Shown here: one piece after another, positions 1,031 to 54,504 of the stretch
How positions within the stretch are numbered: the stretch's first letter is position 1
How the letters are laid out: each line of letters starts with the position of its first letter
Assembly: GCA_964508345.1 (NCBI GenBank)
Contig: CAZDTK010000002.1
Span: forward strand, 7,389 to 71,388
Length of the DNA: 64,000 bases
From: an uncultured Actinomycetes bacterium
GTDB lineage: Bacteria; Chloroflexota; Dormibacteria; Aeolococcales; Aeolococcaceae
Reading direction: 5' to 3'
The notes under the pieces: model-generated
What the model saw: the letters and a program-made list of their open reading frames with translations, nothing else
What the model was told of the DNA's origin: nothing
The model's database searches: none
Translations under genes and position numbers: made by a program

Positions 1031-1084
1031 CGAAACCCGACCAGTCTAATCGACTTTCCCGGCGGGCGAGGCGCCGGGTCCCCA

Positions 1085-15269: not shown

Positions 15270-15585
15270 GTCGGCTTACCCGCACCTCGACTGCAGTCAG
15301 GCCCGGCTCCCTGCGGCCAAGCCCTGACGGCCGCATCATCCCGCGGGCCCTGTGACAGCGCCGATGCACCATGCCGAAGCTGGGTGACGGCGATTGACGA
15401 TGGTTGCCGGTTCGTCACGGGTCGGTTGCCCGCCGCGACCCGCCCGTGGGCACGCGGTTGAGCTGCCGTCACGGTCTGGTTTCCCGCCGGCGGGAGGGCT
15501 TCGCGACGAGGGCTGGTCTGTCGCTCAGCCCTCCCCGGCTGGGAATCGTCTCCGTTCTCATCCGGCGACGACGAGGCCACCTCGG

Positions 15586-17570: not shown

Positions 17571-19271
17571 TCAGTCCGCCGTGTCGGGGGCGACCGCGGC
17601 GGCCACCGCGTCGCGGACCCCGTGGTGGACGTGGTTGGCACCCACCAGGTCGAGGACGCCGTACCTCTGCAGCAGGTCGTGGATGTCCTCGACGTGGGCG
17701 AGGTGCACGCTCACCGAGCGGGTCCGGAGGTCGCGCAGCAGGGTGAGCAGCACCTGGCCGGCCGTGTAGTCGATGTCGGCGACCGGCGAGAGGTCGAGGA
17801 CCACCCAGCTGACCGGGTCCGGCGCGGCGGCGATCAGGGCCAGCAGCCGCTCCCGGAACCGGTCGGCGTTGGCGAAGAAGAGCCTGCCGTCGAAGCGGTA
17901 GGCGATGCCACCCGGAAGGGTCTCGACCCCGGGGCGGGCGGGCTCGGGAACGAGGCCGCCCTCCGCCTCGTTCATCACCATCACGGTATCCCGGGGCCGG
18001 TAGGCGACGCGGACGAAGTCGAGGACCGAGAGCGCCACCGCGAGCGCGATCCCCTGCTCAACACCGATCAGCACGACGACCAGAGCGGTGATGGCCGCGA
18101 CCGCGAACTCGTCACGGCGCAGCCGCCACAGCTCGCGCAGATGGCGGACGTCGACCAGGTGGATGCCGATCACGAACACCACCGCGGCCAGGGTCGCGTC
18201 GGGGAGGAAGTGGAGCAGGGCCGTGGCCGCAGCCAGCACGGCCAGCGCGACCGCTGCCATCACCAGCTGGGCCAGCTGGGTGCGCGCCCCGGCCTGGTCC
18301 ACCACCGCGGTCTTGGTGGGGCTGCCGTTGACGCAGAAGGTGCCGGTCACCCCGGCGGCCAGGTTGGCGACGGCGAGTCCGAGCAGGTCGCGGTCCTCGT
18401 TGAGCGGCTCCTCGTGCTTCTGGGCGAAGCTGCGCGCGGTGGCCGCGCTCTGGGCAAGGACGACCACGAAGATGGAGGCGGCGACGGCGGCCAGTCCCGG
18501 GACCTGACCCCAGGCGAAATGGGGGAGGGCGATCGGGGGGAGCCCCGCCGGGACCGACCCCACGATCGCGACGCCCACGCGGTCGAGGCGGAGGGCGGCG
18601 GTCAGGATGATCGAGGCCGCCACCACCAGCAGGGTGCCGGGGAGCCGCTTGGAGACGCGCTCGAGGAGGAGGAGGACGGCCACCGCGGCGACCGCCAGGA
18701 TCCCCGCCGGGACGACGATGTGGCCGAGCGAGCCCAGCACCTTGCCCGCCTGGCTGATCACGCTGCCGCTGGCGTGGATGCCGAGCATGCCGGGCAGCTG
18801 GGTGAGGGCGACCTGGACGCCGACCCCGGTGAGGAAGCCGACCAGGACGGTGCGGGAGAGGAAGTCGGCGAGAAAGCCGAGCCGGAGCAGTCGGGCGACC
18901 AGCAGGTAGAAGGCGGCGAGCAGGGCGATCACCGAGGCCAGCCCGACGTACTCCGGGCTCGCCGGTTTGGCGATGCCGATCAGCGCCGCGAACATGATGG
19001 CGGCGGTCGCCGAGTCCGCCCCCACCACGAGATGGCGCGACGACCCGATCAGGGCGAAGACGATGACCGGGAGGGCGAGCGTGTAGATGCCGGTGATCAC
19101 CGGCATCCCCGCGATCTTCGTGTAGCCCATCGACTCGGGGATGGCAACGGCGGCGAGGGTTGCCCCCGCGATGACGTCGGCGACGACGGTCGCGCGGGTG
19201 GTGCCGGCCAGGCCCTGGATCAGCGCGAGCGGTCCGGCCCGCTGCGGCGCGGCGTTATCGGTGTCGGTCAC
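17571..19271 (-). CDS. SulP family sulfate/anion permease with a C-terminal STAS domain
   Basis: 566 aa. Sulfate_transp core (AIPESMGYTKIAGMPVITGIYT) and a STAS-like C-terminus. Confidence 0.9.
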   Translation of the reverse strand: MTDTDNAAPQRAGPLALIQGLAGTTRATVVADVIAGATLAAVAIPESMGYTKIAGMPVITGIYTLALPVIVFALIGSSRHLVVGADSATAAIMFAALIGIAKPASPEYVGLASVIALLAAFYLLVARLLRLGFLADFLSRTVLVGFLTGVGVQVALTQLPGMLGIHASGSVISQAGKVLGSLGHIVVPAGILAVAAVAVLLLLERVSKRLPGTLLVVAASIILTAALRLDRVGVAIVGSVPAGLPPIALPHFAWGQVPGLAAVAASIFVVVLAQSAATARSFAQKHEEPLNEDRDLLGLAVANLAAGVTGTFCVNGSPTKTAVVDQAGARTQLAQLVMAAVALAVLAAATALLHFLPDATLAAVVFVIGIHLVDVRHLRELWRLRRDEFAVAAITALVVVLIGVEQGIALAVALSVLDFVRVAYRPRDTVMVMNEAEGGLVPEPARPGVETLPGGIAYRFDGRLFFANADRFRERLLALIAAAPDPVSWVVLDLSPVADIDYTAGQVLLTLLRDLRTRSVSVHLAHVEDIHDLLQRYGVLDLVGANHVHHGVRDAVAAAVAPDTAD

Positions 19272-19355
19272 GGCGCGTGGCAGTCTAACCCGGGTCCGCT
19301 TCCCGAGTCCCCATCGTGCCCGGGTCGCTCCGCTCCTCCTGGACGCGCGCGGCGC

Positions 19356-19971: not shown

Positions 19972-21117
19972 TCAGCGCGACGCCGGGGCGAGGCTGGCGC
20001 GGGCGCGCTCCCGGGCCGTCTCGTAGACGTCAAGGATGCCCTCGACCACCACCCGCCAGTCGTAGCGGCGCGCCTTCTCGATGCCGCGGCCGGCCATGCT
20101 CCGGCGCAGCCCGGGATCGTCGATGAGGGACTCCAGGGCACGGGTGAAGCCCTCCGGCTTGCCCGGTGGCACCAGCAGCCCATCGCCGCCCGGATCGACC
20201 ACCTGGCTGAATCCGGGGATCGCCGAGGCCACCACCGGCAGCCCGCTCGCCATCGCCTCCAGCAGCACGATCCCGAAGCTCTCCCGTCCGGTGGCGGGCG
20301 AACAGAAGACGTCGGCGCCCGCATAGATCTGGGGCAGGACCTGGCCCGAGACGTGCCCCAGGAAGGTGACGTCGGGGACCCCATTGGCCTCGCACTGGCG
20401 CTCGTACGCCCAGCGCATCGGGCCGTCGCCGACGATCACCAGACGGCAGCCCGCTCGCCGGCGGCGGAGCTCCGCGTAGGCGGCGAGCAGGATCGGCAGG
20501 CCCTTGCGCTGCTCCATCCGGCCCACGAAGAGGATGGTCGCGACGCCCGGGACACGGAACTCGGGGGGCGGCTCCAGGTCGGGCCGGAAGCGAGCTCCGT
20601 CGATGCCGTTGGGGACGATCGTGTAGTCGCCCTGGAAGTAGCGGCTGACGAAGTCGCGGGCGGGCTGGCTGACGCAGATCAGGCCGTGGAGGCGGTGGAA
20701 GTAGCGGAGCAGGAACGGCCGGCCGTAGTAGTAGCCGAGGTTGCGGCGGGCCATGGCGTGGAAGGTGCCGACGTTGGCGCCGCGGTGGAAGCGGAGCGTC
20801 GTGATGGGCAGCCCGGGAACCAGCGGCTCGTGGTAGTGGACGACGTCGAAGTCCTCGCGGTCGAGCAGGGAGCGGACCCGGCGGACCAGATGGAAGGAGA
20901 GGGCGATCCGAGCGACCGAGCCGTTGCCGCGGAGCGGGACGCTGCCTCCGATGCGGACGAAACCGGGGATGTCCCGCGTGTCCGCCACCCGGTTGGAGGG
21001 GGCGAGGATGGTGACCTGGTGGTCCCGGCGGCGCAGCTCCTCGGCGAGGTGGCGAACGTGCTCGGTCACCCCGCCGGGGTGGGCGAAGTCGTAGGGGGAG
21101 ACCAGGCAGACCTTCAT
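19972..21117 (-). CDS. pimA: GT4 glycosyltransferase (phosphatidylinositol mannosyltransferase PimA-like)
   Basis: 381 aa. N-terminal MKVCLVSPYDFAHPGGVTEHVRHLAEEL, characteristic of PimA. GT4 C-terminal EX7E region. Confidence 0.8.
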   Translation of the reverse strand: MKVCLVSPYDFAHPGGVTEHVRHLAEELRRRDHQVTILAPSNRVADTRDIPGFVRIGGSVPLRGNGSVARIALSFHLVRRVRSLLDREDFDVVHYHEPLVPGLPITTLRFHRGANVGTFHAMARRNLGYYYGRPFLLRYFHRLHGLICVSQPARDFVSRYFQGDYTIVPNGIDGARFRPDLEPPPEFRVPGVATILFVGRMEQRKGLPILLAAYAELRRRRAGCRLVIVGDGPMRWAYERQCEANGVPDVTFLGHVSGQVLPQIYAGADVFCSPATGRESFGIVLLEAMASGLPVVASAIPGFSQVVDPGGDGLLVPPGKPEGFTRALESLIDDPGLRRSMAGRGIEKARRYDWRVVVEGILDVYETARERARASLAPASR

Positions 21118-21184
21118 CCCGCTGCCGCCCGGGCGCGCGTCGCGAGGCCACCGGGTGCGCGGCGGGCCGGGGCCGGCCGGTCGA

Positions 21185-22189
21185 TCATCGGCCCTCGTCC
21201 CAGATGGGGTCCAGGACGTGCCACTGCTCGGGGTGCTCCCGAATCTCCGCCTCGAAGATGGCGAGGATCTCCAGCACCACCCGGCGCAGCTCCTCGTGCC
21301 GGGGAGCGGTGCGGTCGTAGGCGATCTCCGGGTAGACGCGCACCCCGATCCCTCCGGGGATCCGGGGCAGGATCACGGGCATGATCACCGACCCCGCCCG
21401 CATGGCCACGTCGACGACCCCGACCGGGAAGCGCGCCTCGGCCCCGAAGAAGGGGTAGAGCTCGCCGTTGCCGATCAGGTCCCGGTCCATGGCAAGGGCG
21501 ATGGCACCGCCGCTCTTGAGGATGCGGAGCACGTCGCGCATGGCGGAGGCGCCGAGCCGTCTCGCCGTGGCCTCGTCCGCACCCTTGATGGCGGCGATGT
21601 CGATGGGGACGATGCGCACCCCCTGGGCGCGCCGCGAACCCACCACCCGCTCGAAGAGCTGGGGGGGCCGCAGGTACTCGGCGAGCAGGGCCATCGGGTA
21701 GCCGAGGCTGTTGCCGGCGGCGAGCCCCTTCTCCCACGAGCCGAGGTGGAGCGAGATGACTGCGACACCCCGGCCGCTGGCGGCCGCCTCGATGTAGCGC
21801 TCCATGTGGTCGATGACCAGCCCCTTGCTGATGGCGTCGCCCTCGAAGCGCATCGCCATCACGTCGACCCAGGCGCGGGCGACGTCGCGCAGATTGCGCC
21901 GCACCACCCGGTCGAGCTCCCGGGGCGGGAGATCGGGGAGCACATGGGCGAGGTTGGCGCGTAGCCCGCGGACAGCCCCCGGCCGGACGGTGCGGAGGAC
22001 CTCCACGCAGGCGACGGCCACGCGGTAGGCGGCCGGCCGGGGAAGCACGCGGACGATGCTCTCGCCGACCCGATAGGCGTAGTAGGGCAGCATGGAACCA
22101 CCGTCGTCACCAACGGGAGCGACGGCCCCCGCGGGGACCTCGCCGCTGGGGCCGTGCTCGATGTGACGGCCGACGCTGGTCATCGCCAC
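21185..22189 (-). CDS. LpxL/HtrB-family lipid acyltransferase (PIM acyltransferase PatA-like)
   Basis: 334 aa lysophospholipid-acyltransferase-like protein. Lies between ino1 and pimA, matching the Rv2611c-type acyltransferase of PIM clusters. Confidence 0.75.
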   Translation of the reverse strand: MAMTSVGRHIEHGPSGEVPAGAVAPVGDDGGSMLPYYAYRVGESIVRVLPRPAAYRVAVACVEVLRTVRPGAVRGLRANLAHVLPDLPPRELDRVVRRNLRDVARAWVDVMAMRFEGDAISKGLVIDHMERYIEAAASGRGVAVISLHLGSWEKGLAAGNSLGYPMALLAEYLRPPQLFERVVGSRRAQGVRIVPIDIAAIKGADEATARRLGASAMRDVLRILKSGGAIALAMDRDLIGNGELYPFFGAEARFPVGVVDVAMRAGSVIMPVILPRIPGGIGVRVYPEIAYDRTAPRHEELRRVVLEILAIFEAEIREHPEQWHVLDPIWDEGR

Positions 22190-22222
22190 CCCGGTGAGGC
22201 TCCTGCTACGGGGTGCAGGCTA

Positions 22223-26317: not shown

Positions 26318-26614
26318 TCAGTGGTCGTCCTCGGCGGGGCGGCGCTGGGCGATGCGGTCGCGAAGCGCGTCCTCCATCTCGCCCGAGCTGCCACCCTCGC
26401 GGCGCAGCCAGAAGGGGATCTTCTCGCCCCGCTTCTCGGCCTCGGCGGCCCGCCGCTCCGCCTCCAGGCTGCGCCGCAGGGTGGCGTCCACCGCCGCCTC
26501 CAGCGTGGCCCCTCCGGCGGTCAGCCCCGGGACCAGGTCGGCCGCGATGACCACCGTGTTGGGCGGTGGGGGCGGTGGCGTCGCGGAGCCCAGAAGGCGT
26601 CCAAAGAAGGACAC
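26318..26614 (-). CDS. Hypothetical small protein (98 aa)
   Basis: ORF antisense to the otsA upstream region. GTG start and no clear SD. Composition is moderately protein-like (FWLRREGGSSGEMEDALRDRIAQRR). Weak call. Confidence 0.25.
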   Translation of the reverse strand: MSFFGRLLGSATPPPPPPNTVVIAADLVPGLTAGGATLEAAVDATLRRSLEAERRAAEAEKRGEKIPFWLRREGGSSGEMEDALRDRIAQRRPAEDDH

Positions 26615-26872
26615 GGCTGCGCGAGTCTACCCGGCCGGCGCGGCGGGCCGCCGGACCGACGAATCCCGTGGGGGACACGCCGACCCGAACGCGGAGACCT
26701 CTCCGGAACCGTGTCCCAGGCTGCTAGCGTCGTATCGGCGCTGCGCTGCTGCAAGCTCCGGCAGGCACCCGCGGCGTATGGAGCATTCGGAACCGCCCAG
26801 CAGGGTCGACAGGCCGCAAGGAGACCGAAACTGCCCGCGCTCGAACCCTACACCCGGCGTCTGCTTCGCCAT

Positions 26873-28327
26873 GTGAGCCCGATCGTGGTCGCCAACCGGG
26901 CCCCGCTCGTGCTGGTGCCAGAGGACCCGCTGCTGGGGCGGCCGGAACGGCTGGTCAAGGGGGCGGGCGGACTGGTGACCGCGCTCTCGTCGCTGGCGGC
27001 GGAGACCGGGGCGCTCTGGGTGGCGGCGGCACGCGACCAGCAGGACCGGCAGCTGGCCGGGCGCGGCGATCCGGCCCACCTCCGCACCGACGACGGCACC
27101 GAATACCGGGTGGCCTTCATCCAGCCCGACGCTGCCGCCTACGACCTCTACTACAACGTCATCGCCAACCCGCTGCTCTGGTTCATCCAGCACTACCTCT
27201 GGGACCTTGCCCGGGAACCGGTGGTCGATGCGTCCACCCGCCACGCCTGGCGCGAGGGCTACGTGGCCGTCAACCGGATGTTCGCTGACCGGGTCGTCGA
27301 GGAGGCGGCCGGGAGCGACCGCCCTCCACTTGTGCTGATCCAGGACTACCAGCTCTATCTGGTCGCCCGAATGGTGCGCGAGCGCCTCCCCGAGGTGCGG
27401 CTGCAGCACTTCGTGCACATCCCCTGGCCGACTCCGCAGTACTGGAAGATCCTGCCCAAACCGATCCGCGACGAGATCGTCCACGGGCTCCTCGGCAACG
27501 ACATCATCGGCTTCCAGACCAGCCGTGACGTGCGCAACTTCCTGCTCACGTGCGAGGAGAACCTGGGGCTCGGGGTCGACCTCCGGGAGCGCACCGTCTA
27601 CTACCAGGGGAGGGCGGTGTGGGTCCGCCACTACCCGATCAGCATCGACATCCCCAGCTTCGCTGAACAGGTCGTCGATCCGCTCGTCCTGGACGAGGAG
27701 CGGCGGATCGAGGGGTGGCGACCCGAGAAGCTGATCCTGCGGGTGGACCGAACCGACCTCAGCAAGAACATCGTCCGCGGCTTTCTCGCCTACGAGCGGA
27801 TGCTGGAGATGCACATCGATCTGCACCGCCGGGTCCAGTTCTGGGCGTTCCTGCAGCCGAGCCGGCAGGACATCGGCGACTACCGCTCCTACCTCGGCAG
27901 CGTGCTCTCAGTGGCGGCGCGGATCAACCGGCGCTTCTCCGGCGGCGGCTGGACGCCGATACGGGTCGAGGTCGAGGAGAACATGCATAAGGCGATCGCC
28001 GCCTACAAGTGCTTCGACGTGCTGCTGGTCAATCCCATCTACGACGGGATGAACCTGGTCGCCAAGGAGGGTCCGCTCTGCAACACCCGCAACGGGGTCC
28101 TCGTCCTCAGTGAGAACGCGGGGGCCCACGAGGAGATCGGGGACTTCGCCCTCACGGTCAACCCCTTCGACATCGACGAGACGGCGGAGGCGCTCCTGAT
28201 GGGGCTGATCATGGAGGAGCCGGAGCGGGCGGCCCGGGCGGAGAGGATGCGCGACACGATACGGAGCAACGACCTCTCCCGCTGGATCGGGAACCAGCTG
28301 CAGGACCTGCGCGAACTGATCGGCTAG
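26873..28327 (+). CDS. otsA: Alpha,alpha-trehalose-phosphate synthase (GT20, OtsA-like)
   Basis: GT20 blocks (IVVANRAP, LIQDYQLYLVA, HIPWP, GFQT, NPIYDGMNLVAKE). The start is uncertain: no in-frame ATG, so a GTG at 26873 is proposed. Confidence 0.75.
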   Translation: MSPIVVANRAPLVLVPEDPLLGRPERLVKGAGGLVTALSSLAAETGALWVAAARDQQDRQLAGRGDPAHLRTDDGTEYRVAFIQPDAAAYDLYYNVIANPLLWFIQHYLWDLAREPVVDASTRHAWREGYVAVNRMFADRVVEEAAGSDRPPLVLIQDYQLYLVARMVRERLPEVRLQHFVHIPWPTPQYWKILPKPIRDEIVHGLLGNDIIGFQTSRDVRNFLLTCEENLGLGVDLRERTVYYQGRAVWVRHYPISIDIPSFAEQVVDPLVLDEERRIEGWRPEKLILRVDRTDLSKNIVRGFLAYERMLEMHIDLHRRVQFWAFLQPSRQDIGDYRSYLGSVLSVAARINRRFSGGGWTPIRVEVEENMHKAIAAYKCFDVLLVNPIYDGMNLVAKEGPLCNTRNGVLVLSENAGAHEEIGDFALTVNPFDIDETAEALLMGLIMEEPERAARAERMRDTIRSNDLSRWIGNQLQDLRELIG

Positions 28328-30248: not shown

Positions 30249-30686
30249 ATGATGGCCTCCCGGGACCCCTCCGCCTCCGCGGCCCCTTCGTCGCCGCCAC
30301 TCGTCGACCTGCTGCGGGCCATCCTGGACGATGCGCTGCGGGTCGCCCGGGCTGAGCTGAAGCTGGTCAAGGTGGAGGGCATCGCCACCGGCAAGCGCGG
30401 CGCCATCGGCGTGGGGCTGCTGGCCGCAGCCGCCGTTTCCGCCTTCCTCGTGGTCGTCTTTCTGCTGGGAGCCGCCGCCGAGGCGATCGGCGGGCTGCTC
30501 GGCCACCGCTGGCTGGGCTGGCTGATCATCGCCGGGCTGTGCGTGCTGATCGCGGTCGCCCTGGGCTGGCTCGGCTACCGCACGGTGAAGAGGGCAATCG
30601 CCGAAGGCCGCAGGGTCGGTGCCACCGTCATGGAGGACCTGGAGTGGGTCAGGGAGTTGCCGAAGCAGAGCGCGAACGGGAGCTGA
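30249..30686 (+). CDS. Putative actinobacterial Holin-X family (holin superfamily III-like) membrane protein
   Basis: 145 aa. Two TM helices flanking the LRVARAELKLVKVEGIATGKRGAIG pattern typical of this family. In actinobacteria it is usually a stress-membrane protein rather than a phage holin. Confidence 0.6.
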   Translation: MMASRDPSASAAPSSPPLVDLLRAILDDALRVARAELKLVKVEGIATGKRGAIGVGLLAAAAVSAFLVVVFLLGAAAEAIGGLLGHRWLGWLIIAGLCVLIAVALGWLGYRTVKRAIAEGRRVGATVMEDLEWVRELPKQSANGS

Positions 30687-31087
30687 GCAAGCAGGCGCTT
30701 GCCGCTCACGTGACGGCTCTGGACGCCCGGGTTCGGGCAGAGCTCGACTGGAGGGCACGGCTCCGGCGCGACGGGCTGCGCTACGCCATCATCGGCGTCG
30801 CGGCGCTGGCCGTCACCGTGTCGGTGGTGGTGCTCCGGTCACGGCGCCGTCGCCCAGAGCCGGCGCCGCTCACGGTGACGTCGCTCGACGACATCGCGGC
30901 CCAGCTCGAGGAGATCAGGGACGAGCTGGCCCGCCGCCGCAAGCAGAGCGAGCCCCTCTGGCAGAGGCTGGCGGTGCGAGCCGCCACCACCGCCGCAGCA
31001 GCCGGCGGGAACGCCGTCGCCCGCAGGGTGATGGAATCCTTCGGCGCCGGCGTCCCGGGCCCCGGCGAGGAGTCGGGCGGCGGCTGA
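30644..31087 (+). CDS. Hypothetical membrane-anchored coiled-coil protein (DUF3618-like)
   Basis: GTG start with GGAGGA 7 nt upstream. Overlaps the previous gene by about 40 nt. Coiled-coil, one TM, then a second coiled-coil. Confidence 0.45.
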   Translation: MGQGVAEAERERELSKQALAAHVTALDARVRAELDWRARLRRDGLRYAIIGVAALAVTVSVVVLRSRRRRPEPAPLTVTSLDDIAAQLEEIRDELARRRKQSEPLWQRLAVRAATTAAAAGGNAVARRVMESFGAGVPGPGEESGGG

Positions 31088-31142
31088 GCAGCGCACGCCT
31101 GGCTGACCGGGAGCCCACCGCGGGGCGGGGACGCGGCAGTGG

Positions 31143-31304
31143 TCAGTCGGCGGCGATGGCCCCCGGGCAGCGGGGGAAGTCGGGGCACATCCAGACCGTG
31201 GAGCCGCGCCGCTCCATCGGCTTCTCGCAGATCGGGCAGACGGGCCGGAGAGCGGCTGCGGGACGCGGCTTGGGCCGCTTGCCGCCGAGGGGCAGGAGGC
31301 GCAT
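31143..31304 (-). CDS. Small C4 zinc-finger protein (topoisomerase-type zinc ribbon)
   Basis: About 53 aa from MRLLPLGGK. Motif CPICEKPM...VWMCPDFPRCPG. Confidence 0.45.
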   Translation of the reverse strand: MRLLPLGGKRPKPRPAAALRPVCPICEKPMERRGSTVWMCPDFPRCPGAIAAD

Positions 31305-31590
31305 CAGGCGTCCTTCATACACCCGCCGGAGGGCGGTGTGGGCCCGACGGCGGGCCGGCGACCCGGCCGGAACCCCGGCTCGCCCGCCAGTTCGGGAGAG
31401 CCGCCCCGGGACGGGATTGCGACGGGGAGGAGGATGATGGCCGGCGCCATGCGATGACGCTAGGCGCCCGGACCTTGCCGGCGGGTGACCGATTCTCACC
31501 GCCGGGCCTCAGGCTGAAGAAGGTAACGCTCTTGTAAGGTTCGGCTGGTCAGCATCCTACCGATCTAGTCAGGGCCGACTGGGAGATTTC

Positions 31591-32700
31591 TTGTCCGCGA
31601 AGTCCGCGGCCGAAGTGGTCTGGCGCGGGCGCGAGGGTGCGCCTGCCGATGACCGGCCGGCCCACCCCGCCATCACGACATCGTCCGCCCAGGCGCAGCG
31701 GGGGGCGCGGCATCAGTGGTTGACGCGAAGGCGCGTCCTCCTGGCCGGTCTCCAGCTGGTGGTCCTTCTGATCTGCGCCGCGGTGATCTACGGCCTGGTC
31801 CGCAAGGTGGATCCGGCGTCGGTCATCAGCCAGGCGGGTCATGTCTCCTGGCCCCTGGTGGGGGTGGCGATCGCCCTCAACCTCCCCACCACGCTGCTGC
31901 GCGCCCGCCGCTCCCAGATCCTCCTCACCCGCCTCGGTCACCACGTCCCCTTCGTGCGCATGAACTGGGTGGATCTGGCCGGACAGACGCTCAGCTGGCT
32001 CACCCCGGCCGCCAGCGGGGACCTCTCCCGCCCCTATCTCTGGCGGAACAATGACCGGGTCCCGGTCAGCGCCGGGGTGGCGACGGTCGTCTACGAGCGT
32101 CTGGTGACGCTGGTCCAGATGTCGGTGATCGGCGGGGTTCTCGCTGCCGCCCTCTTCCTCCCGCCCCTGGCGGCCGCCGGACTGGCGGTCGCCGGCCTCC
32201 TGGTCCTTGCCCTGCCCTGGTGGGCGAGCGTGCTCACCCGCGGGACCCGCCCGGAGACGCTGCCCACGACGCGGGGGCTCCGCGCCGGGGTGGTGCGGGC
32301 CCTCTTCCAGCTCCACGACCTGGGGGCCTCGCCACGGCTCACCGCCGGCTTCGCCGGCTACACGCTGGTGATCTTCGCGGTGAGCGGCTTCCAGATCCTG
32401 CTGCTCGCCTGGGCGCTTGGGGTCGGCGTCGCGCTGACCGTGGCCATCGCGGCCTACTGCCTCTCCCAGGTGGCCGGCAGCCTCTCGACGCTGCCCTTCG
32501 GCATCGGGGCGACGGATCTGGTCACGATCGGACTCCTCACCGCCGGCGGTGTCGGCCATCCCGCCGCCCTGGTCATCACCGTCCTGGTGCGGCTGGTCAT
32601 GACCCTCCCCTTGGGGATCGCAGGCGCGGTCGGCATCCTGCTTCTGGGCCGTCCCCGGATCGCCGAGGAGCAGGCACCCGGGGTGCCGGCACAGCCGTGA
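31591..32700 (+). CDS. Flippase-like membrane protein (lysylphosphatidylglycerol-synthase TM-region / UPF0104 family)
   Basis: 369 aa, about 8 TM helices. First gene of a tightly overlapped four-gene operon. Confidence 0.65.
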   Translation: MSAKSAAEVVWRGREGAPADDRPAHPAITTSSAQAQRGARHQWLTRRRVLLAGLQLVVLLICAAVIYGLVRKVDPASVISQAGHVSWPLVGVAIALNLPTTLLRARRSQILLTRLGHHVPFVRMNWVDLAGQTLSWLTPAASGDLSRPYLWRNNDRVPVSAGVATVVYERLVTLVQMSVIGGVLAAALFLPPLAAAGLAVAGLLVLALPWWASVLTRGTRPETLPTTRGLRAGVVRALFQLHDLGASPRLTAGFAGYTLVIFAVSGFQILLLAWALGVGVALTVAIAAYCLSQVAGSLSTLPFGIGATDLVTIGLLTAGGVGHPAALVITVLVRLVMTLPLGIAGAVGILLLGRPRIAEEQAPGVPAQP

Positions 32701-33722
32701 CCGCTGAGGAGACCGGGCCCGCAGCCACGCGCGGCGGGCCGGGGACGGGGTCCCCACCCTCCCGGGTCGCCGTGGTCGGGGGCGCCGGGTTCATCGGCAG
32801 CCATCTGGTCGAGCTGCTCGCCGCAGATGGGGTCGCGGTCCTCGTCATCGACGACCTCTCCCACCCCTGTGGAGCGCCCCTCCCGGCCTCGGTCGAGCTG
32901 GTCGAGGCCGACGCCGGGGGGGGCGAGGCCGCCGAGGCCCTGGCCGGGTTCCGTCCCCAGGCCTTGGTCCACCTCGCCGCCAAGGGAGGGGTCAACCGCG
33001 CCCTGCGCGACCCCGGTGACCACATCCGCCGCGTCCTGGCCAGTTCGGTGGCCTGTTTCGACGCGGCGGCACGAGCCGGCTGCGAGGCGCTCCTCATCGC
33101 CTCCTCGGGGGGCGCCGTCTACGGTGACCCCGCCCATCTGCCCGCCTCCGAGGAGCTGACCCCAGCGCCCCGGTCCGCCTACGGGGCGGAGAAGCTGTGC
33201 GAGGAGACCTACCTCTGGACCTACCGGCAGCGGGGCGTGCGCACCGTCGCCCTCCGCTACGGGAACGTCTACGGCCCCCGCCAGGACGGCACCGGCGAGG
33301 CCGGGGTGGTCGCCATCTCCTCGACCCGGCTGGCGCAGGGGCTTCGGCCGGTCATCTACGGGGATGGCTCGCAGACCCGTGACTTCGTCTATGTCGCCGA
33401 CGTGGCCGCCGCCACCCGGGCGGCGCTCCGCAGCGACCTGGACGGACCGGTCAACATCGGGACCGGGCGCGAGACGAGCGTCTCGCAGATCGTCGAGGGG
33501 CTGATCGCGGCGGCGGGGGGCGGAATCACCGCCGAGTTCCAGCCGGCTCGCCCCGGGGAGGTGGCCCGCGCCTGCCTCGACGCGCGGCGCGCCGAGCGTT
33601 TGCTCGGTTGGAAGCCGCAAACTTCACTCGCCGAGGGCCTCGCCCTGGCCCACCGGTACTTCAAGAGCCAGATCGCACGGACAGCTGCGGCCGGGGATCG
33701 CCCGGCTCACAAGGGGAGATAG
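32697..33722 (+). CDS. NAD-dependent epimerase/dehydratase (UDP-sugar 4-epimerase-like SDR)
   Basis: Rossmann motif VVGGAGFIGSHL. Catalytic YGAEK (YxxxK). GTGA start/stop overlap with the upstream gene. A later GTG start is possible. Confidence 0.8.
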   Translation: MTAEETGPAATRGGPGTGSPPSRVAVVGGAGFIGSHLVELLAADGVAVLVIDDLSHPCGAPLPASVELVEADAGGGEAAEALAGFRPQALVHLAAKGGVNRALRDPGDHIRRVLASSVACFDAAARAGCEALLIASSGGAVYGDPAHLPASEELTPAPRSAYGAEKLCEETYLWTYRQRGVRTVALRYGNVYGPRQDGTGEAGVVAISSTRLAQGLRPVIYGDGSQTRDFVYVADVAAATRAALRSDLDGPVNIGTGRETSVSQIVEGLIAAAGGGITAEFQPARPGEVARACLDARRAERLLGWKPQTSLAEGLALAHRYFKSQIARTAAAGDRPAHKGR

Positions 33723-33725
33723 CAA

Positions 33726-34939
33726 TGCGCATCGCGGTCCTCGGGGCCGACGGCTACTTGGGATGGCCGACCGCCCTTCACCTCTCCGCCCGCGGCCACG
33801 ACGTCATCGGTGCAGACAGCCTGGTGCGGCGGCGCTGGGACGAAGAATGCGGTACCGACAGCCTGACCCCGATCGCGTCGATCGAGGAGCGGCTGGCCCG
33901 CTGGCAGGCGGTGAGCGGCAGGACTATCGCCTGGCACCAGATCGATCTCTGCGATGCCCGGGCCGTCGAGGACCTGATCCGGGTGAGCCAGCCGGACGCC
34001 GTCGTCCACTTCGCCGAGCAGCGCTCGGCTCCCTACTCGATGATCAGCCCGCGGCACGGCGTGGAGACCCAGATCAACAACGTGGCGGGCACCCTCAACC
34101 TCCTCTTCGCGATCCGCGACCTGGCCCCGAACTGCCACATCATCAAGCTGGGGACGATGGGCGAGTACGGGACGCCCAACATCGACATCGAGGAGGGGTG
34201 GCTCGAGGTCGAGCACAACGGCCGCCACGACCGGATGCTCTACCCCAAGCAGCCGGGATCCATCTATCACCTCTCCAAGGTCCACGACAGCCACAACCTG
34301 GATTTCGGCTGCCGCGTCTGGGATCTGCGGGTCACCGACCTCAACCAGGGCGTGGTCTACGGGACCACCACCGACGAGACGGCTCAGCACCCCCAGCTGA
34401 TCACCCGCTTCGACTACGACGGGATCTGGGGCACGGTGCTCAATCGCTACTGCGTCGAGGCGGCGGTCGGCGAGCCGCTCACCGTCTACGGGAAGGGCGG
34501 CCAGACCCGCGGCTTCCTGGACATCCGCGATACGGTGCGCTGCATCGAGCTGGCCGCTCTCAACCCGGCGGCGCCCGGGGAGTTCCGGGTCTTCAACCAG
34601 TTCACCGAGCAGTTCTCGGTCCTGGAGCTCGCCCGGAAGGTGGAGCACGCCCGCGCCGCGCACGGCCTGCCCACCACCATCCAGCACGTCCCCAACCCGC
34701 GCCGGGAGAAGGAGGATCACTACTACAACGCCAAGCACCAGCACCTCCTCGACCTCGGCCTCGAGCCTCACAACCTCAGCGACACCCTCATCGACACCGT
34801 GGTGGGGACCGTCGAGGCCAACGTCTCCCGGGTCCGGCACGAGACCATCGAGGCGACCATCGACTGGCGCAAGGGCGGTGCCGTCTACTCCACCGGGCAT
34901 GCGCCGGCGCTGACGGCGCTCACCGGCAGCGGTGGCTAG
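33726..34939 (+). CDS. sqdB: UDP-sulfoquinovose synthase
   Basis: 404 aa. Near co-linear with SQD1/SqdB: GADGYLGWPTALHLS, SLTPIASIEERL, HFAEQRSAPYSMI, KLGTMGEYGTPNIDIEEGW, YPKQPGSIYHLSKVHDSHN, TDLNQGVVYG, GKGGQTRGFLDIRDTV, FRVFNQFTEQFSV, HYYNAKH. Confidence 0.9.
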
Positions 34940-35699
34940 TCATCCCCCGCTGAGCAGCCTCACCCTGGTCCTCCCGGTCCACAACGAGGCCGAGAACCTG
35001 AGCTGGCTGCTTCCTCACGCTGCCCAGGTGCTGCCCGGCCTGGCGGTCACGTACGACCTGGTGATCGTCGACGATGGCAGCACCGACGGCAGCGGCAGGC
35101 TGGCCACCAGCCTCGCCGGAGAGCTGGGGATGCGCCTCCAGGTGGTCCGCCACGAGCAGAAGAGCGGCTACGGGATCACGGTGGGGGACGGCCTGCGGGT
35201 CGCTCGCGGCGACTTCGTCGCCTTCACCGACGCCGACGGCCAGTTCGAGATCGCCGACCTCGCCCTGCTTCTGCCCCTCCTGGACCGGGCTGACCTCGCC
35301 GCCGGCTGGCGGGAGAAGCGGCGCGACGCCTGGCCCCGGGAGGTGGTCAGCTGGGTGTTCAACACCCTGGTGGCCGTCCTCTACCGCCTCCCGTACCGGG
35401 ACGTAGACTGCGCGCTCAAGCTGATGCGCCGCGAGGTCCTCGAGTCGATCACCCTGGAGGCTCGAAGCGCCCTGATCAACGCGGAGCTGTATTACAAGGC
35501 CCGCTACGCGGGCTGGCGCATCGCCCAGGTCGCCGTCCCCCACCACCCGCGGGTGGCCGGCCGGCGTTCGGGGGCCCGGCCCCGGGCCATCGCCCGTGCC
35601 ATCAAGGAGCTGATCGTCTTCCGGTTCAAGATCCGGCGGTCGCTGCCGTCCCGGCACGCGGCCGGGGTCGCCCACCCCGAGCCCGCCGACCAGGGCTGA
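34932..35699 (+). CDS. GT2 glycosyltransferase, dolichyl/polyprenyl-phosphate sugar transferase-like (DPM1/GtrB type)
   Basis: 255 aa. LTLVLPVHNEAENL, VIVDDGSTDGS, DADGQF (DXD). Overlaps the sqdB stop by 8 nt. Confidence 0.8.
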   Translation: MASHPPLSSLTLVLPVHNEAENLSWLLPHAAQVLPGLAVTYDLVIVDDGSTDGSGRLATSLAGELGMRLQVVRHEQKSGYGITVGDGLRVARGDFVAFTDADGQFEIADLALLLPLLDRADLAAGWREKRRDAWPREVVSWVFNTLVAVLYRLPYRDVDCALKLMRREVLESITLEARSALINAELYYKARYAGWRIAQVAVPHHPRVAGRRSGARPRAIARAIKELIVFRFKIRRSLPSRHAAGVAHPEPADQG

Positions 35700-35730
35700 C
35701 CGGGGCCCGGAAGGGTATTCGAGCTCCCGG

Positions 35731-36999
35731 TCAGTTCAGGCTGGCACTCAGCAGGGTGGGCTCCGCCCCGTCGGCCTCGGCGGCCTCGTCGAAGGACTCC
35801 TTCGGAGAGTCCCCGTACCAGAGCGTGCCATTGGGCCCCCCCGTCCCGGTCGTGACCCGCTCCCCGGCAGCCGTGGCGACGACCTGCAGGTCTCCCGCCA
35901 TCTCCGCCTGGCCACCGGCGGCGACCGCGATCTGCTGGGCGGTGGCCGAGACCTGACGGCTGGCCACGCTCACCTGCTCCATCGCCTCCACCACCTGTTC
36001 CGAGGCGGAGCGCTGCTGCTGGGTCGCGAGCCGCACGTTCGAGCTGGCCTCGGCCACCTGCTCCATCAGCCCGAGGCCGATCTGGAGCTGGGCGGCGCCC
36101 TCCTCCATGGCGATGACCGTGGCACTCGTCTCGGACTCGGCGTTCTCGGTGATCGTGGAGATGTCGGCCGCCAGCGCCTTGGAGCGGTCGGCGAGGCGCC
36201 GGACCTCGTCGGCCACCACCGCGAAGCCGCGGCCGGCCTCACCGGCGCGGGCGGCCTCGATGGCGGCGTTCAGGGCGAGCAGGTTGGTCTGGTCCGCGAT
36301 GTCGTTGATGAGGTTGAGGATGCGGCCGATATCGCGGACCCGGTCGGTGAGGGCCACGGTGCGCTGCCCGGAGGTGAGGATGCGCTCGTGGGCTCGGTCC
36401 AGGTTGTCCCGGGTCTCGGCGGCCTGGGTGGCCACCCGCTCGACGGTCTCGGCGATGTGGGCCGAGGTCCGGGCCAGCTCCTCCATGCTCGCCGAGGTCT
36501 CCACGGCGGCCGAGGTCTGCTGGGCGGTGGTGGAGACCAGCTGGGTGGAGGCCTCGGAGAGGCGGGCCGCAGAGGCGGCCAGCTCGCCGCTCACGTCCCG
36601 GACGCGCTCGACCATGCCCCCGAGCCGGTCGACCATGAGGTTGGACGCGATCCCCAGCTCGCGCAGCTCGGCGGCACCCCCCGGCGTGACCCGGGCGGTG
36701 ACGTCCCCGGCGGCGACCCGGCGGGCCAGCTGCCCCAGCGCGTTGATGTGCTCGGTCTCGCGGCTGGCGACCAGGGCGGCACCGGCCCCGAGGAGGACCA
36801 CGCCGGCCAGCCCGAGCAGGAGGGCCGCGGTGCGAACCTCGGCGACCGCGCCGGAGGGCAGGCCGCTGCCCGAGGTGACGGCGACCAGCACCACGATGAG
36901 GAGGCCCATCACGACGACGCCCGAGACGACGACCCCCGCGACGACCCGGACGAGGAACCGATCCAGCATCCTTCGCGCGGTAGCTCCAAGGTTGACCAT
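35731..36999 (-). CDS. Methyl-accepting chemotaxis protein (short-sensor paralogue)
   Basis: Two TM helices with a very short periplasmic loop, HAMP, and a signalling domain about 90% identical to the MCP at 13176..15269. ATG start with GGAGG 6 nt upstream. Confidence 0.8.
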
Positions 37000-37216
37000 G
37001 ACGGCCTCCATCCGTGCCACGCCCGGTCGGTGCGGCTTCCGGTTCGGCTCTCAGATGTAGCACCGCGGGGAGGGCCGGGGACGTGAGGTTTGCGTGACGT
37101 CCTGCTCACAGTCCGGCACGGAGAGATCCACCGGCACCGGGTCCGGCCCTCATGCGGCACGCTGGCCGCGGCCGGGTCAGGGCCGGCCAGGGGGGCGAAT
37201 GCCCGGGGAGACGATC

Positions 37217-50710: not shown

Positions 50711-51220
50711 ATGCTCAGTAGGGACACGCGCACGGCCACCTGGTGGAGATCGGTGGACAAGCCCCCCGCCGCCGGCTGGCAGGCGCCGGCCGCCCCGCCG
50801 CGGAAGCGCGAGAGGCGGCGCCGGGCCGGCCTGCAGCCGCTGGTGGCCGCAGGCGCAGCTCCGGTCACCGGCGCGCTCGCCAAACCTCGTCGCGACCCGG
50901 TGCGGGTCGCCTGGGGGCTGCTCTGGCGCTATGCGACCGTGGGCGCGGTGGCGTTCGCCGTCGTCGCCGGCCTCCACCTCCCCGACGTTTCGCTGGTGGT
51001 CGTCGGGGCGGGCGGGCTCCTCCTCGGCCTCTGGTTCCGGCGCGGCTGGGTCCCCGCCCTCTGGCGGGCCGCCGTGCTCGGCTGGCTGGCCGCCGCGACG
51101 GCGGGGTCGTGGTTCTTCCCGGTGGTCCTGGTCGCCGCGCTCCTGGTGGTGAGCATCGAGCCCTGGCTCGCAGCCCGGCGCCCGCCGCGGTCCCGCGACC
51201 ACGGCTCAGGCGGGGGCTGA
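50711..51220 (+). CDS. Hypothetical membrane protein
   Basis: Several TM helices and a Trp-rich segment. No recognisable family. Start uncertain (50624 or 50711). Confidence 0.35.
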   Translation: MLSRDTRTATWWRSVDKPPAAGWQAPAAPPRKRERRRRAGLQPLVAAGAAPVTGALAKPRRDPVRVAWGLLWRYATVGAVAFAVVAGLHLPDVSLVVVGAGGLLLGLWFRRGWVPALWRAAVLGWLAAATAGSWFFPVVLVAALLVVSIEPWLAARRPPRSRDHGSGGG

Positions 51221-52696: not shown

Positions 52697-52776
52697 CGGG
52701 CGGATGATGGCACGCCGGGCAGGTCAGGCATGGGCCGATCGCGGGTGATCGAGACGGCGCCCGGGGACCGCGCCGC

Positions 52777-54489: not shown

Positions 54490-54504
54490 TAACCGGCCGC
54501 CGAT

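Follow-up and report, generated by a model that had tools for sequence, protein, structure and literature searches.

In the Arn pathway (ArnC, ArnE-ArnF and ArnT, acting through Und-P-L-Ara4FN) and in O-antigen glucosylation (GtrA, GtrB and GtrC), a modified sugar is first attached to polyprenyl phosphate by a cytoplasmic GT2 enzyme, a small membrane protein flips the product, and a GT-C enzyme transfers the sugar outside. In the mycobacterial system PpgS (Rv3631)/Rv3632/Rv3779, which uses polyprenyl-P-GalNAc for the GalN modification of arabinogalactan, PpgS is a short PP-type GT2, soluble and devoid of TM helices, whose companions are a membrane protein and a GT-C. In archaea, the Dol-P/polyprenyl-P hexose GT2 AglD is paired with a PF03706 (UPF0104) membrane domain, which forms its C-terminal part, and with a GT-C; neighbourhoods of UPF0104, AglD-like GT2 and PMT/STT3-like enzymes have been described (Makarova et al. 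2015, PMC5898192). Sulfoquinovose itself is used in classical SQDG synthesis (SqdB with SqdX/SQD2, or SqdBDC with SqdA). In Sulfolobus acidocaldarius, the membrane GT Agl1 is assumed to transfer it from UDP-SQ to a lipid-linked glycan (PMC4388408), and Thermoplasma acidophilum, which has an SQ synthase homologue, carries 6-C-sulfofucose, a naturally occurring 4-epimer of sulfoquinovose, in its N-glycan (PMC11407970, PMC4388408). A UPF0104 flippase-like protein is encoded with a sugar transferase and a tailoring enzyme in the small operons GpgSDF of P. aeruginosa (GlcN-PG) and HexSDF of C. difficile (HNHDRG), GpgF and HexF being predicted flippases only (PMC12713373, PMC10128005).

The window analyzed here (the whole 64-kb stretch of a metagenome contig) belongs to a lineage of the uncultured phylum Dormibacterota, not to an actinobacterium. 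This soil bacterium has an operon that most likely serves to make sulfoquinovose, attach it to a lipid carrier in the membrane and flip the product outward for the envelope. The four co-directional genes (Table 1) lay where the earlier note had placed them, with profile scores agreeing with the families it had named, and gene calling carried out independently on the source contig gave the same four products. The overlaps it had described at all junctions were found between G1 and G2 (4 nt, GTGA) and between G3 and G4 (8 nt), whereas G2 and G3 are separated by a 2-nt gap with the Shine-Dalgarno sequence AAGGGGAG, and sqdB starts one position before the 33726 that had been given. The upstream neighbours (MerR, response regulator, holin-X) and the downstream neighbours on the opposite strand (MCP, GGDEF-EAL, FIST) were unrelated. 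At least 11 Dormibacterota loci keep G1 to G4 as a unit, with G1 identity down to 43%; because the four genes are conserved jointly while the flanks differ, their grouping is beyond chance. The conserved element upstream of G1 was identical or nearly identical in six loci (L001-L006), in which the surrounding intergenic DNA was not alignable. It occurred once in the window (0 matches expected by chance), a related motif precedes sqdB in Dormibacterota clade 2, and it is possibly a promoter or operator of the operon.

Table 1. Coordinates of the operon genes and associated features in the window.
Feature	Position	Strand	Description
Conserved element GGTAACGCTCTTGTAAGGTT ... CAGCATCC	31522..31554	+	upstream of G1
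G1	31591-32700	+	369 aa, TTG start
G2	32697-33722	+	341 aa
G3 (sqdB)	33725-34939	+	404 aa
G4	34932-35699	+	255 aa
Candidate partner GT-C glycosyltransferase	52777-54489	-	PMT_2-like, 9 TM, HWYTDEAGY loop motif

Judged by its sequence, G3 is a bona fide SQD1/SqdB, as the earlier note had called it without reserve. It matched A. thaliana SQD1 (1QRR) over the full length (58% identity, E 2e-155) and scored 477 bits against the UDP-sulfoquinovose synthase model NF041015. The catalytic residues, whose loss would have spoken against this assignment, were intact (H95, R100, T144, M145, Y181, H182 and K185; roles of SQD1-type residues from PMC4388408). G2 scored 167 bits against the SDR Epimerase profile and 143 bits against TIGR01179 (under the cut-off of 262). 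Its best solved relatives were short GalE enzymes (4zrm, 7ys8 and 2p5u, E 1e-58 to 1e-54), and the GxxGxxG, Ser and YxxxK motifs were present, whereas the dehydratase Asp-Glu was absent. On these matches, G2 is an extended SDR of the GalE-type UDP-hexose 4-epimerase kind.

The family proposed for G1 was borne out by its PF03706 score (109 bits, cut-off 33). About seven to eight TM helices were counted, and a search of the PDB with the AF2 model (pLDDT 84) returned six MprF structures as the sole significant matches (E 3e-5 to 2e-4); G1 is thus a predicted stand-alone MprF-type flippase-like membrane protein. PF03706 proteins studied by experiment are linked to glycerolipids (MprF), not to polyprenyl carriers (PMC12713373, PMC10128005). 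G4 matched the GT2 profile PF00535 (76 bits) and contained a DADGQ motif; a TM segment was looked for in it and none was found. The "DPM1/GtrB-like" label given to it earlier agrees with its nearest relatives, which were exclusively polyprenyl-phosphate GTs, both among the seven best PDB sequence matches (ArnC, DPMS and GtrB) and among the top 25 Foldseek matches of its AF2 model (pLDDT 85; all ArnC, GtrB or DPMS, E 4e-15 to 1e-10). Its scores were below every NCBIfam equivalog cut-off, including only 39 bits against the PpgS model. Among 10 fused close GT2 relatives, the fusion partner was a PMT_2 GT-C domain in four, joined by GtrA_DPMS_TM and YkcB_C in one of these, and a VTT/DedA domain in a fifth. 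Non-GT-C fusion partners (amine oxidase, GH5) also occur among the close relatives, which implies differing acceptors across this GT2 subfamily. We predict G4 to be a GT2 of polyprenyl-phosphate glycosyltransferase type that is soluble or peripherally attached.

The comparison of gene neighbourhoods that had been suggested covered the 80 nearest SqdB loci. A PP-type GT2 lay within 5 kb of sqdB in 61 of them, across two phyla, and was accompanied by an SDR in 55 of these 61; a recognizable GT-C was present in 38 loci. Many culturable actinomycetes carry related sets of genes. The order in Kribbella and Amycolatopsis is SDR, a GT-C::GT2 fusion and SqdB; the N-terminal domains of these fusions matched PMT_2 (18/18), and their GT2 parts best matched Dol-P hexose transferase, AglJ and PpgS. 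Against the PpgS model, actinobacterial sqdB-linked GT2s reached approximately 90-96 bits. Between the Dormibacterota and the actinobacterial cassettes, the SDRs were not orthologous, and the cassette-linked SqdBs formed two separate clades, so an SDR may have been recruited twice. Five rearranged Dormibacterota versions retained the parts of the set and had in addition a polytopic membrane protein adjoining the GT2, either a GT-C (families F8, PMT, and F16, PMT_2) or a DUF2079 protein (L088).

The operon of the window has no GT-C of its own. The candidate, 17 kb away, scored 24.8 bits against PMT_2 (slightly under the cut-off), was 45% identical over the full length to F16, which directly follows the GT2 in the sqdB clusters of clade 2, and was 41-43% identical to the PMT_2 gene adjoining a G4-like GT2 in L086 and L089; comparing the GT-C families profile against profile gave a weak result. 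We infer a partnership with the operon from the 41-45% identity to these cluster-linked homologues. Points against a polyprenyl reading are the operon without a GT-C, the glycerolipid precedents of PF03706, and the position of G4 under the equivalog cut-offs and without a TM hairpin.

Probably, a sulfonated sugar is used here in lipid-carrier glycosylation by a three-component system, of which the operon encodes the half that acts in the cytoplasm and in translocation. UDP-sulfoquinovose would either be used as such or, with about an even chance, be 4-epimerized by G2 to UDP-6-deoxy-6-sulfo-galactose ("sulfofucose"); alternatively, G2 may merely balance the UDP-Glc/UDP-Gal supply. As suggested by its family, fold and gene linkage, G4 would load the sulfosugar onto polyprenyl phosphate at the inner membrane face, G1 would carry polyprenyl-P-sulfosugar to the outer leaflet, and a GT-C encoded outside the operon, possibly the candidate in Table 1, would transfer the sugar to an extracytoplasmic acceptor in the envelope (protein, wall polysaccharide or lipoglycan). 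The earlier note had likewise proposed a lipid-linked sulfoquinovose or 4-epimer flipped for the envelope rather than SQDG, which the relatives of G4, the GT-C linkage, the MprF fold and the lack of a linked GT4 support.

G4 could instead put sulfoquinovose from UDP-SQ directly onto a glycerolipid (diacylglycerol, glycolipid or PG) and G1 flip the finished anionic, phosphorus-free lipid outward, in the manner put forward for GpgSDF and HexSDF. We consider such a functional counterpart of SQDG, produced by a non-canonical inverting transferase, unlikely. Phospholipid substitution is plausible in nutrient-poor soils, the habitat of Dormibacterota, and the operon lacks a GT-C. MprF, whose fold G1 shares, flips aminoacyl-PG, and characterized synthase-flippase operons with a UPF0104 protein yield glycerolipid glycolipids (PMC12713373, PMC10128005). 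However, the GpgSDF and HexSDF synthases are GT-B enzymes (GT4, MGDG-synthase type) acting on glycerolipids beside a deacetylase as tailoring enzyme, not DPM1-like GT-As; the nearest sequence and fold relatives of G4 point to polyprenyl phosphate, and GT-C enzymes, whose donors must be polyprenyl-linked, adjoin orthologous or equivalent GT2s or form fusions with them.

It is still less probable that SqdB feeds an SqdX/SqdD-type transferase encoded elsewhere, in a genome inspected over 64 kb only, with flippase, SDR and GT2 forming a separate polyprenyl-P-hexose (e.g., galactose) module. Classical SQDG synthesis shares its first enzyme with the operon, and a flippase-SDR-GT2-PMT_2 cassette without sqdB, with a GT2 65-67% identical to G4, was found in L086 and L089, so the module can stand alone as a gene cluster. 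Yet the assembly with L089 (SMAG_U9993, DASRDZ010000019) retains an orphan sqdB (L010) on another contig (DASRDZ010000042). Moreover, sqdB sits between the SDR and the GT2 in the operon with translationally coupled junctions, and its linkage to the GT2 persists through rearrangement. As claimed earlier, no SqdX-like GT4 (nor a GT8 lipid transferase) is linked to the operon, where the partner is a predicted inverting polyprenyl-P-type GT-A. A lipid-type GT4 followed sqdB in only five of the 80 loci, none with a PP-type GT2, and the GT4-linked SqdBs fell in clades apart from those linked to PP-type GT2s; the only GT4 in the window was generic, paired with a Lip_A_acyltrans gene and unlike these lipid-type GT4s. 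The transfer of sulfoquinovose by G4 to an isoprenoid end product (carotenoid, hopanoid or menaquinone-like lipid), with G1 flipping the sulfonated glycoside, is highly improbable: an amine-oxidase/phytoene-desaturase-like domain is fused to one close GT2 relative and SDR, GT2 and UPF0104 (HpnL) trios occur in hopanoid clusters, but the HpnA and HpnB matches were far under cut-off, neither the window nor any related locus examined had isoprenoid-pathway genes close to the cluster, and the GT-C linkage would be left unexplained.

The proposed carrier-linked pathway follows the order of steps of the Arn and Gtr systems, whose ArnC and GtrB are the best sequence and fold matches of G4, and the operon has its own sugar-nucleotide tailoring enzymes upstream, like the Arn pathway. 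It differs from both in its sugar, a C6-sulfonate made by SqdB, in a putative flippase of MprF type (PF03706) rather than ArnE/F or GtrA, in the lack of the TM hairpin carried by ArnC, GtrB and DPMS, and in a GT-C that is unlinked in the window. The PpgS system resembles the operon in its components, but uses another sugar and has no SqdB. G1 and G4 look like a split AglD, although the operon is bacterial, its genes are separate, its sugar would be sulfoquinovose, and there is no evidence of AglB-type N-glycosylation. The likeness to archaeal Agl3 drawn in the earlier note holds insofar as the SQ synthase would serve a glycoconjugate rather than SQDG, but the analogy is loose: the Agl1 route assumed for Sulfolobus has no polyprenyl-P-monosaccharide and GT-C step, and instead of an epimerase, flippase and PP-type GT2, the Agl3 and T. 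acidophilum clusters contain a pyrophosphorylase and a kinase. ArnC/ArnT, GtrABC, PpgS/Rv3779 and archaeal AglD would be closer mechanistic analogues. Envelope decoration with carrier-linked sulfoquinovose has not yet been described in bacteria; if the proposed pathway is true, the envelope would gain a fixed negative charge on a C-S bond.

The four genes read in the earlier note as a sulfoquinovose (SQ) operon were found at the place claimed, both as open reading frames and in independent gene calls, with small corrections only. Genes were called by GC3-based gene finding and ORF listing in a window of approximately 71% GC, and the independent calls (public contig ENA ERZ27250145, k141_1765151, 373,847 bp) gave the same four products: the flippase-like protein G1, the SDR G2, the SqdB G3 and the GT2 G4. 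The claim that all junctions overlap stood for G1/G2 (4-nt overlap, GTGA) and G3/G4 (8-nt overlap) and failed for G2/G3, where a 2-nt gap is preceded by AAGGGGAG; the sqdB start, placed earlier at 33726, was one base off. The 5′ neighbours (MerR, response regulator and holin-X, the holin domain being of the 'actinobacterial' type) and those on the 3′ side (MCP, GGDEF-EAL protein and FIST protein, all on the opposite strand) have signalling or housekeeping functions and are unrelated to the operon. G1-G4 are a discrete unit.

Features of the operon and other genes of the window
Feature	Position	Strand or orientation	Description
Tandem rhodanese	128-1045	-	Window start
SulP/STAS sulfate permease	17571-19355	-	12 kb upstream of operon
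GT4	19972-21372	-	Only GT4 of window; best match MSMEG_0565 family
GT4 with overlapping Lip_A_acyltrans (PatA/HtrB-like) gene	19972-22219	-	
GT20 trehalose-6-phosphate synthase	26321-28327		Longest ORF 668 aa
Conserved element GGTAACGCTCTTGTAAGGTT...CAGCATCC	31522-31554		Directly upstream of operon
G1	31591-32700	Codirectional with G2-G4	369 aa, TTG start
G2	32697-33722	Codirectional	341 aa
G3	33725-34939	Codirectional	404 aa
G4	34932-35699	Codirectional	255 aa
Island of polytopic membrane proteins	51206-57793		
GT87 GT-C	51206-52696	-	Island neighbour of candidate GT-C
Candidate GT-C, F16 homologue, PMT_2-like	52777-54489	-	9 TM, loop motif HWYTDEAGY
8-TM ORF, no family	54505-56040	+	Same island
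FGLLP-motif membrane protein NF041501	56030-57793	-	Same island

Within positions 30600-37200, the promoter scan gave no sigma-70 promoters and the terminator scan a single terminator-like hairpin, which is at chance level. Rfam, searched over the whole window, gave no riboswitch or leader 5′ of G1, its sole matches being two tRNAs, and no match to the conserved element upstream of the operon. This element occurs once in the window and is also present in the related loci L001-L006, approximately 70 nt 5′ of the flippase gene, where the remaining intergenic DNA around it does not align. A related motif with small palindromes, ATAACCCnTTCGAAAGGTC...GAAGGTC, precedes sqdB in a second group of Dormibacterota clusters (clade 2); its position in L014-L024 is ~4900-4960 upstream of sqdB. 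The element could be a promoter, an operator or a short leader.

The reading of G3 as SQD1/SqdB was borne out by an end-to-end match to Arabidopsis SQD1 (1QRR; residues 2-386 against 3-387, E 2e-155, 58% identity). G3 keeps H95, R100, T144, M145, Y181, H182 and K185, the YHxxK motif being Y181(H182)xxK185, and in the alignment these residues match the catalytic triad of SQD1 (T145, Y182 and K186) and the residues essential in Agl3 (His95, Arg101 and Met145; PMC4388408). The match to the NCBIfam equivalog NF041015 was full length (1-381 against 1-383) and scored 477 bits, less than the cut-off of 575. Many accepted members of the family are more distant from plant SQD1 than G3 is, so it was filed as SqdB despite this score, and on sequence grounds we accept it as a UDP-sulfoquinovose synthase. 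Its nearest relatives (85-87% identity) were from Candidatus Dormibacterota MAGs of peat and permafrost soils; in L001-L006 the flanking genes were also syntenic with the window. On these grounds the window is almost certainly of Dormibacterota origin and not actinobacterial, its high GC and its holin domain notwithstanding.

G4 has no TM segment. Its best seven PDB sequence matches were ArnC, P. furiosus DPMS and GtrB, and the same enzymes made up all of the top 25 Foldseek matches of its AlphaFold model (23 homologues; pLDDT 85, pTM 0.85), with E from 4e-15 to 1e-10 and TM ~0.7; other GT-A enzymes ranked below. Its nearest sequence and fold relatives are thus all polyprenyl-phosphate glycosyltransferases (PP-GTs), as expected of the DPM1/GtrB-like GT2 that had been proposed. 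G4 has the GT-A fold, and its DxD (DAD-x-Q) metal and nucleotide motif, D100-A-D102-G-Q104 (DADGQ), was invariant in the 23 homologues and aligned with DADLQ of ArnC. The C-terminal TM anchor of ArnC, GtrB and PfDPMS was absent from G4; PpgS and human DPM1 are also without C-terminal TM helices, and not every family member has such an anchor. When 1.8 billion cluster representatives were searched exhaustively, 584 relatives of G4 were found (E<1e-30), and ten multidomain relatives were scanned for domains. Four were GT2+PMT_2 fusions (one also with GtrA_DPMS_TM and YkcB_C) and three were double GT2s; VTT/DedA+GT2, an amine oxidase domain and a GH5 domain were found in one each.

The flippase-like character of G1 was likewise confirmed: it scored 109 bits against PF03706 (UPF0104, COG0392; gathering threshold 33.4), has approximately 7-8 TM helices and resembles the N-terminal domain of MprF in fold. 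This likeness came from the fold search with the predicted model (pLDDT 84), in which six MprF structures were the only matches at E<=0.001 (E 3e-5 to 2e-4; next match, E 0.08); a PDB sequence search with G1 gave no match. UPF0104 proteins are predicted flippases in archaeal glycosylation, with predicted flipping of polyprenyl-P-sugar, a fusion in AglD and neighbourhoods that include PMT/STT3-like enzymes (Makarova et al., PMC5898192). Glycosyltransferase fusions of the UPF0104 domain are listed in the PplT preprint.

The comparison of neighbourhoods across relatives that the earlier note had suggested was made on the 80 nearest SqdB loci: neighbours were clustered, representatives were annotated with Pfam and NCBIfam, and HMMs were built, with which six-frame translations were then scanned. 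It agreed with the proposed linkage, a PP-type GT2 lying within 5 kb of sqdB in 61 of the 80 loci. An extended SDR stood beside this GT2 in 55 of the 61, a recognisable GT-C was adjacent or fused in 38 of the 61, and 23 census loci had a PF03706 gene. A lipid-type GT4 followed sqdB in five of the 80 loci (L032, L053, L065, L069 and L073) and never co-occurred with a PP-type GT2; the best NCBIfam matches of these GT4s were GlcNAc-PG synthase and monoglucosyl-DAG synthase, the profile expected of an SqdX-like enzyme. None of these partner genes was found within 5 kb of sqdB in seven of the 80 loci, and six deltaproteobacterial/Binatus loci had a different GT2 type. In the latter (L026, L028, L034, L036, L043 and L054), sqdB stands among three to four non-PP-type GT2 genes, a gene of family F19, which has no annotation, and a gene resembling a sigma-54-type activator; this is another non-SQDG context, possibly that of an SQ-containing exopolysaccharide. 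Three loci are probably from mis-binned or contaminated assemblies: L015, labelled Saccharimonadales, was syntenic with Dormibacterota clade 2; L055, labelled Melainabacteria, had the actinobacterial GT-C::GT2 fusion arrangement; and L069, labelled Aerococcus, had a high-identity sqdB-GT4 pair, unexpected there.

The order in Kribbella, Amycolatopsis, Saccharomonospora and relatives was SDR, 740-aa protein, SqdB. The first 470 aa of the middle protein are a GT-C (PMT_2 in 18 of 18 members, best E 4e-8; PMT also in seven of the 18), and the closest matches of its C-terminal GT2 were dolichyl-phosphate hexose transferase, AglJ and PpgS. Haloechinothrix encodes the two halves separately, with one gene on either side of sqdB. 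Dormibacterota showed five rearranged versions of one parts list. The window and L001-L006 have flippase-SDR-SqdB-GT2; L007, L008, L011 and L012 differ from this in having an inverted GT2 that runs in the same direction as a PMT-type GT-C (family F8), and in L013 the inverted GT2 was present and F8 was not matched. The inverted GT2 of L088 adjoins a DUF2079 membrane protein (13851-15356 of that locus). The clusters of L086 and L089 lack sqdB and consist of flippase-SDR, an inverted GT2, a PMT_2 GT-C and the gene of a 706-aa protein, and clade 2 has an inverted flippase gene, SqdB-GT2-GT-C(F16)-GT-C(F8) and an inverted SDR. L089 (contig DASRDZ010000019) and the 'orphan' sqdB locus L010 (DASRDZ010000042) belong to the same assembly, so the sqdB-less cassette and sqdB co-occur in one MAG. 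Large proteins without annotation were seen next to the cassette more than once: the 706-aa protein after the PMT_2 gene of L086 and L089 (12363-14483 and 14487-16607) and a 560-650-aa protein (F56) directly after sqdB in L010 and L031. These, like the DUF2079 protein, may be additional transferases or be related to the acceptor.

The GT-C assignments rest on Pfam PMT_2/PMT matches (18 of 18 N-terminal domains of F3, the fusion family; F8; F16); hhalign of the shallow alignments of F3N, F16 and F8 was mostly insignificant, with only F68 serving as a bridge (72-83% probability). Upstream families F35, F47, F81 and F69 of Streptosporangiaceae and Solirubrobacterales were considered as GT-Cs and rejected as AAA/VWA, SLT, unannotated or siroheme-type proteins. 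The donors of GT-C enzymes are polyprenyl-linked. The recurrent fusion to, or adjacency with, GT-Cs is the strongest available argument that the GT2 subfamily of G4 charges polyprenyl phosphate.

The SDR before sqdB had been called an epimerase, and the structural relatives and motifs of G2 agree with a GalE-type enzyme. G2 is an extended SDR whose closest structures were the short GalE-type 4-epimerases 4ZRM, 7YS8 and 2P5U (E 1e-58 to 1e-54), with UDP-GlcA 4-epimerases lower among its solved relatives. It has GxxGxxG, Ser and YxxxK, is without the dehydratase Asp-Glu, is 38% identical to TmGalE 4ZRM, with SSGGAVYG and YGAEK present, and scored 143 bits against TIGR01179 (cut-off, 262). Its substrate may be either UDP-Glc/Gal or UDP-SQ. 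The SDRs of the Dormibacterota and actinobacterial cassettes were of different subgroups and 29-34% identical, less than G2 and the Thermotoga GalE, and orthology between them was rejected. The linked SqdBs formed two separate clades in a neighbor-joining tree made without bootstrap. Together, the nonorthologous SDRs and the separate SqdB clades suggest that an SDR was recruited twice, and Dormibacterota and Actinomycetota appear to have assembled the cassette independently of each other. A dedicated role of G2 is favoured by the retention of an SDR in 55 of the 61 cassettes, by the different SDR subgroups of the two phyla and by the separate SqdB clades. The sqdB-less cassette keeps its SDR, so that the SDR may belong to a generic module, which counts against a dedicated role. 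A 4-epimer of SQ has a precedent in the 6-C-sulfofucose of Thermoplasma acidophilum, which has an SQ synthase homologue (PMC11407970, PMC4388408).

We moderately favour a carrier-lipid model, drawn from homology and predicted structures. SqdB (G3) would make UDP-SQ from UDP-Glc and sulfite, the only step strongly supported by homology, and G2 may epimerise UDP-SQ at C4. G4 would then move the sulfosugar onto polyprenyl phosphate, G1 would flip the carrier-linked sulfosugar to the outer leaflet and a GT-C would pass it to an envelope acceptor; family, fold and gene linkage point to these three steps. The lipid-linked sulfoquinovose for envelope use proposed in the earlier note is supported in silico. 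The main rival is direct synthesis of a sulfoglycolipid as in GpgSDF and HexSDF, and the experimentally studied UPF0104 systems do concern glycerolipids (PMC12713373, PMC10128005). However, those systems combine a GT-B transferase with a deacetylase and UPF0104, whereas the window operon shares only UPF0104 with them, has a GT-A transferase of the PP-GT type and has no deacetylase; direct synthesis also leaves the GT-C linkage unexplained. A carotenoid or hopanoid acceptor, raised by one fusion among the G4 relatives, is a minor possibility. An SqdX hidden elsewhere in the genome may serve sqdB, but the tight gene coupling in the operon, the linkage conserved across phyla and the lack of any SqdX-like GT4 near sqdBs linked to a PP-type GT2 argue against it. 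No GT4 (SqdX/SQD2) or GT8 (SqdD) lipid transferase is linked to sqdB in the window operon and the one GT4 of the window is generic, in keeping with the claim that the partners of sqdB are not SqdX or SqdD.

For the last step of the carrier-lipid model, the window operon itself contains no GT-C, and the candidate lies 17 kb away. Its protein is 45% identical over the full length to F16, the GT-C of the clade 2 clusters, and 41-43% identical to the PMT_2 gene product beside the G4-like GT2 in L086 and L089, a divergence similar to that of the GT2s and SDRs between those lineages. From these comparisons we infer that it may be the partner of the operon. The island in which it lies suggests that the organism has several envelope glycosylations dependent on polyprenyl-P-sugars.

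Other genes of the window were also noted. The GT4 was rejected as a hidden SqdX given its generic GT4 profile and its Lip_A_acyltrans neighbour; the pair, although in a Dormibacterota genome, resembles the phosphatidylinositol-mannoside synthesis genes of actinobacteria. The SulP/STAS permease and the rhodanese are possible sulfur-supply genes. The start codon of the GT20 gene is uncertain, as the independent call was 480 aa and the N-terminal 187 aa are without a domain match.

Sulfoquinovose is regarded as a product of phototrophs (SQDG), archaeal N-glycans excepted, and the sulfoglycolysis field assumes so (PMC13436972, PMC12890257). The actinobacterial homologue SACE_5690 was placed in the tree of the Agl3 paper with no comment on its function (PMC4388408). 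In the literature covered, which was incomplete, we found no description of a polyprenyl-linked sulfoquinovose in bacteria, nor of this sugar in the envelopes of Dormibacterota or actinomycetes. We classify the proposed system as a three-component carrier-lipid glycosylation in which the sugar is new and the flippase is of an unusual type. The broader proposal, to which we give even weight for and against, is that nonphototrophic soil Dormibacterota and many Actinomycetota, including the culturable Kribbella, Amycolatopsis, Nonomuraea and Saccharomonospora, make polyprenyl-P-SQ (or 6-sulfo-fucose), with which GT-Cs sulfoquinovosylate envelope proteins or polysaccharides. Kribbella and Amycolatopsis, both culturable, carry an equivalent cassette, and the proposal is thus open to direct test; possible carriers for this are Kribbella sp. 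NBC_00889 (CP108783, cluster near 7.78 Mb) and Amycolatopsis circi. If true, this envelope modification would be new in bacteria, and soils would have a nonphotosynthetic source of SQ that has gone unrecognised and that feeds the organosulfur cycle. Such a carrier-lipid route, in soil heterotrophs that are abundant, would add a new class of bacterial surface glycoconjugates with a permanently charged C-S sugar. It would also give a first sugar, and a first function, to the combination of a DPM1-like GT2 with a UPF0104 'flippase', which is widespread but unproven. The cassette is widespread and occurs in culturable genera, and it would alter what is assumed about where sulfoquinovose comes from and how it is used.
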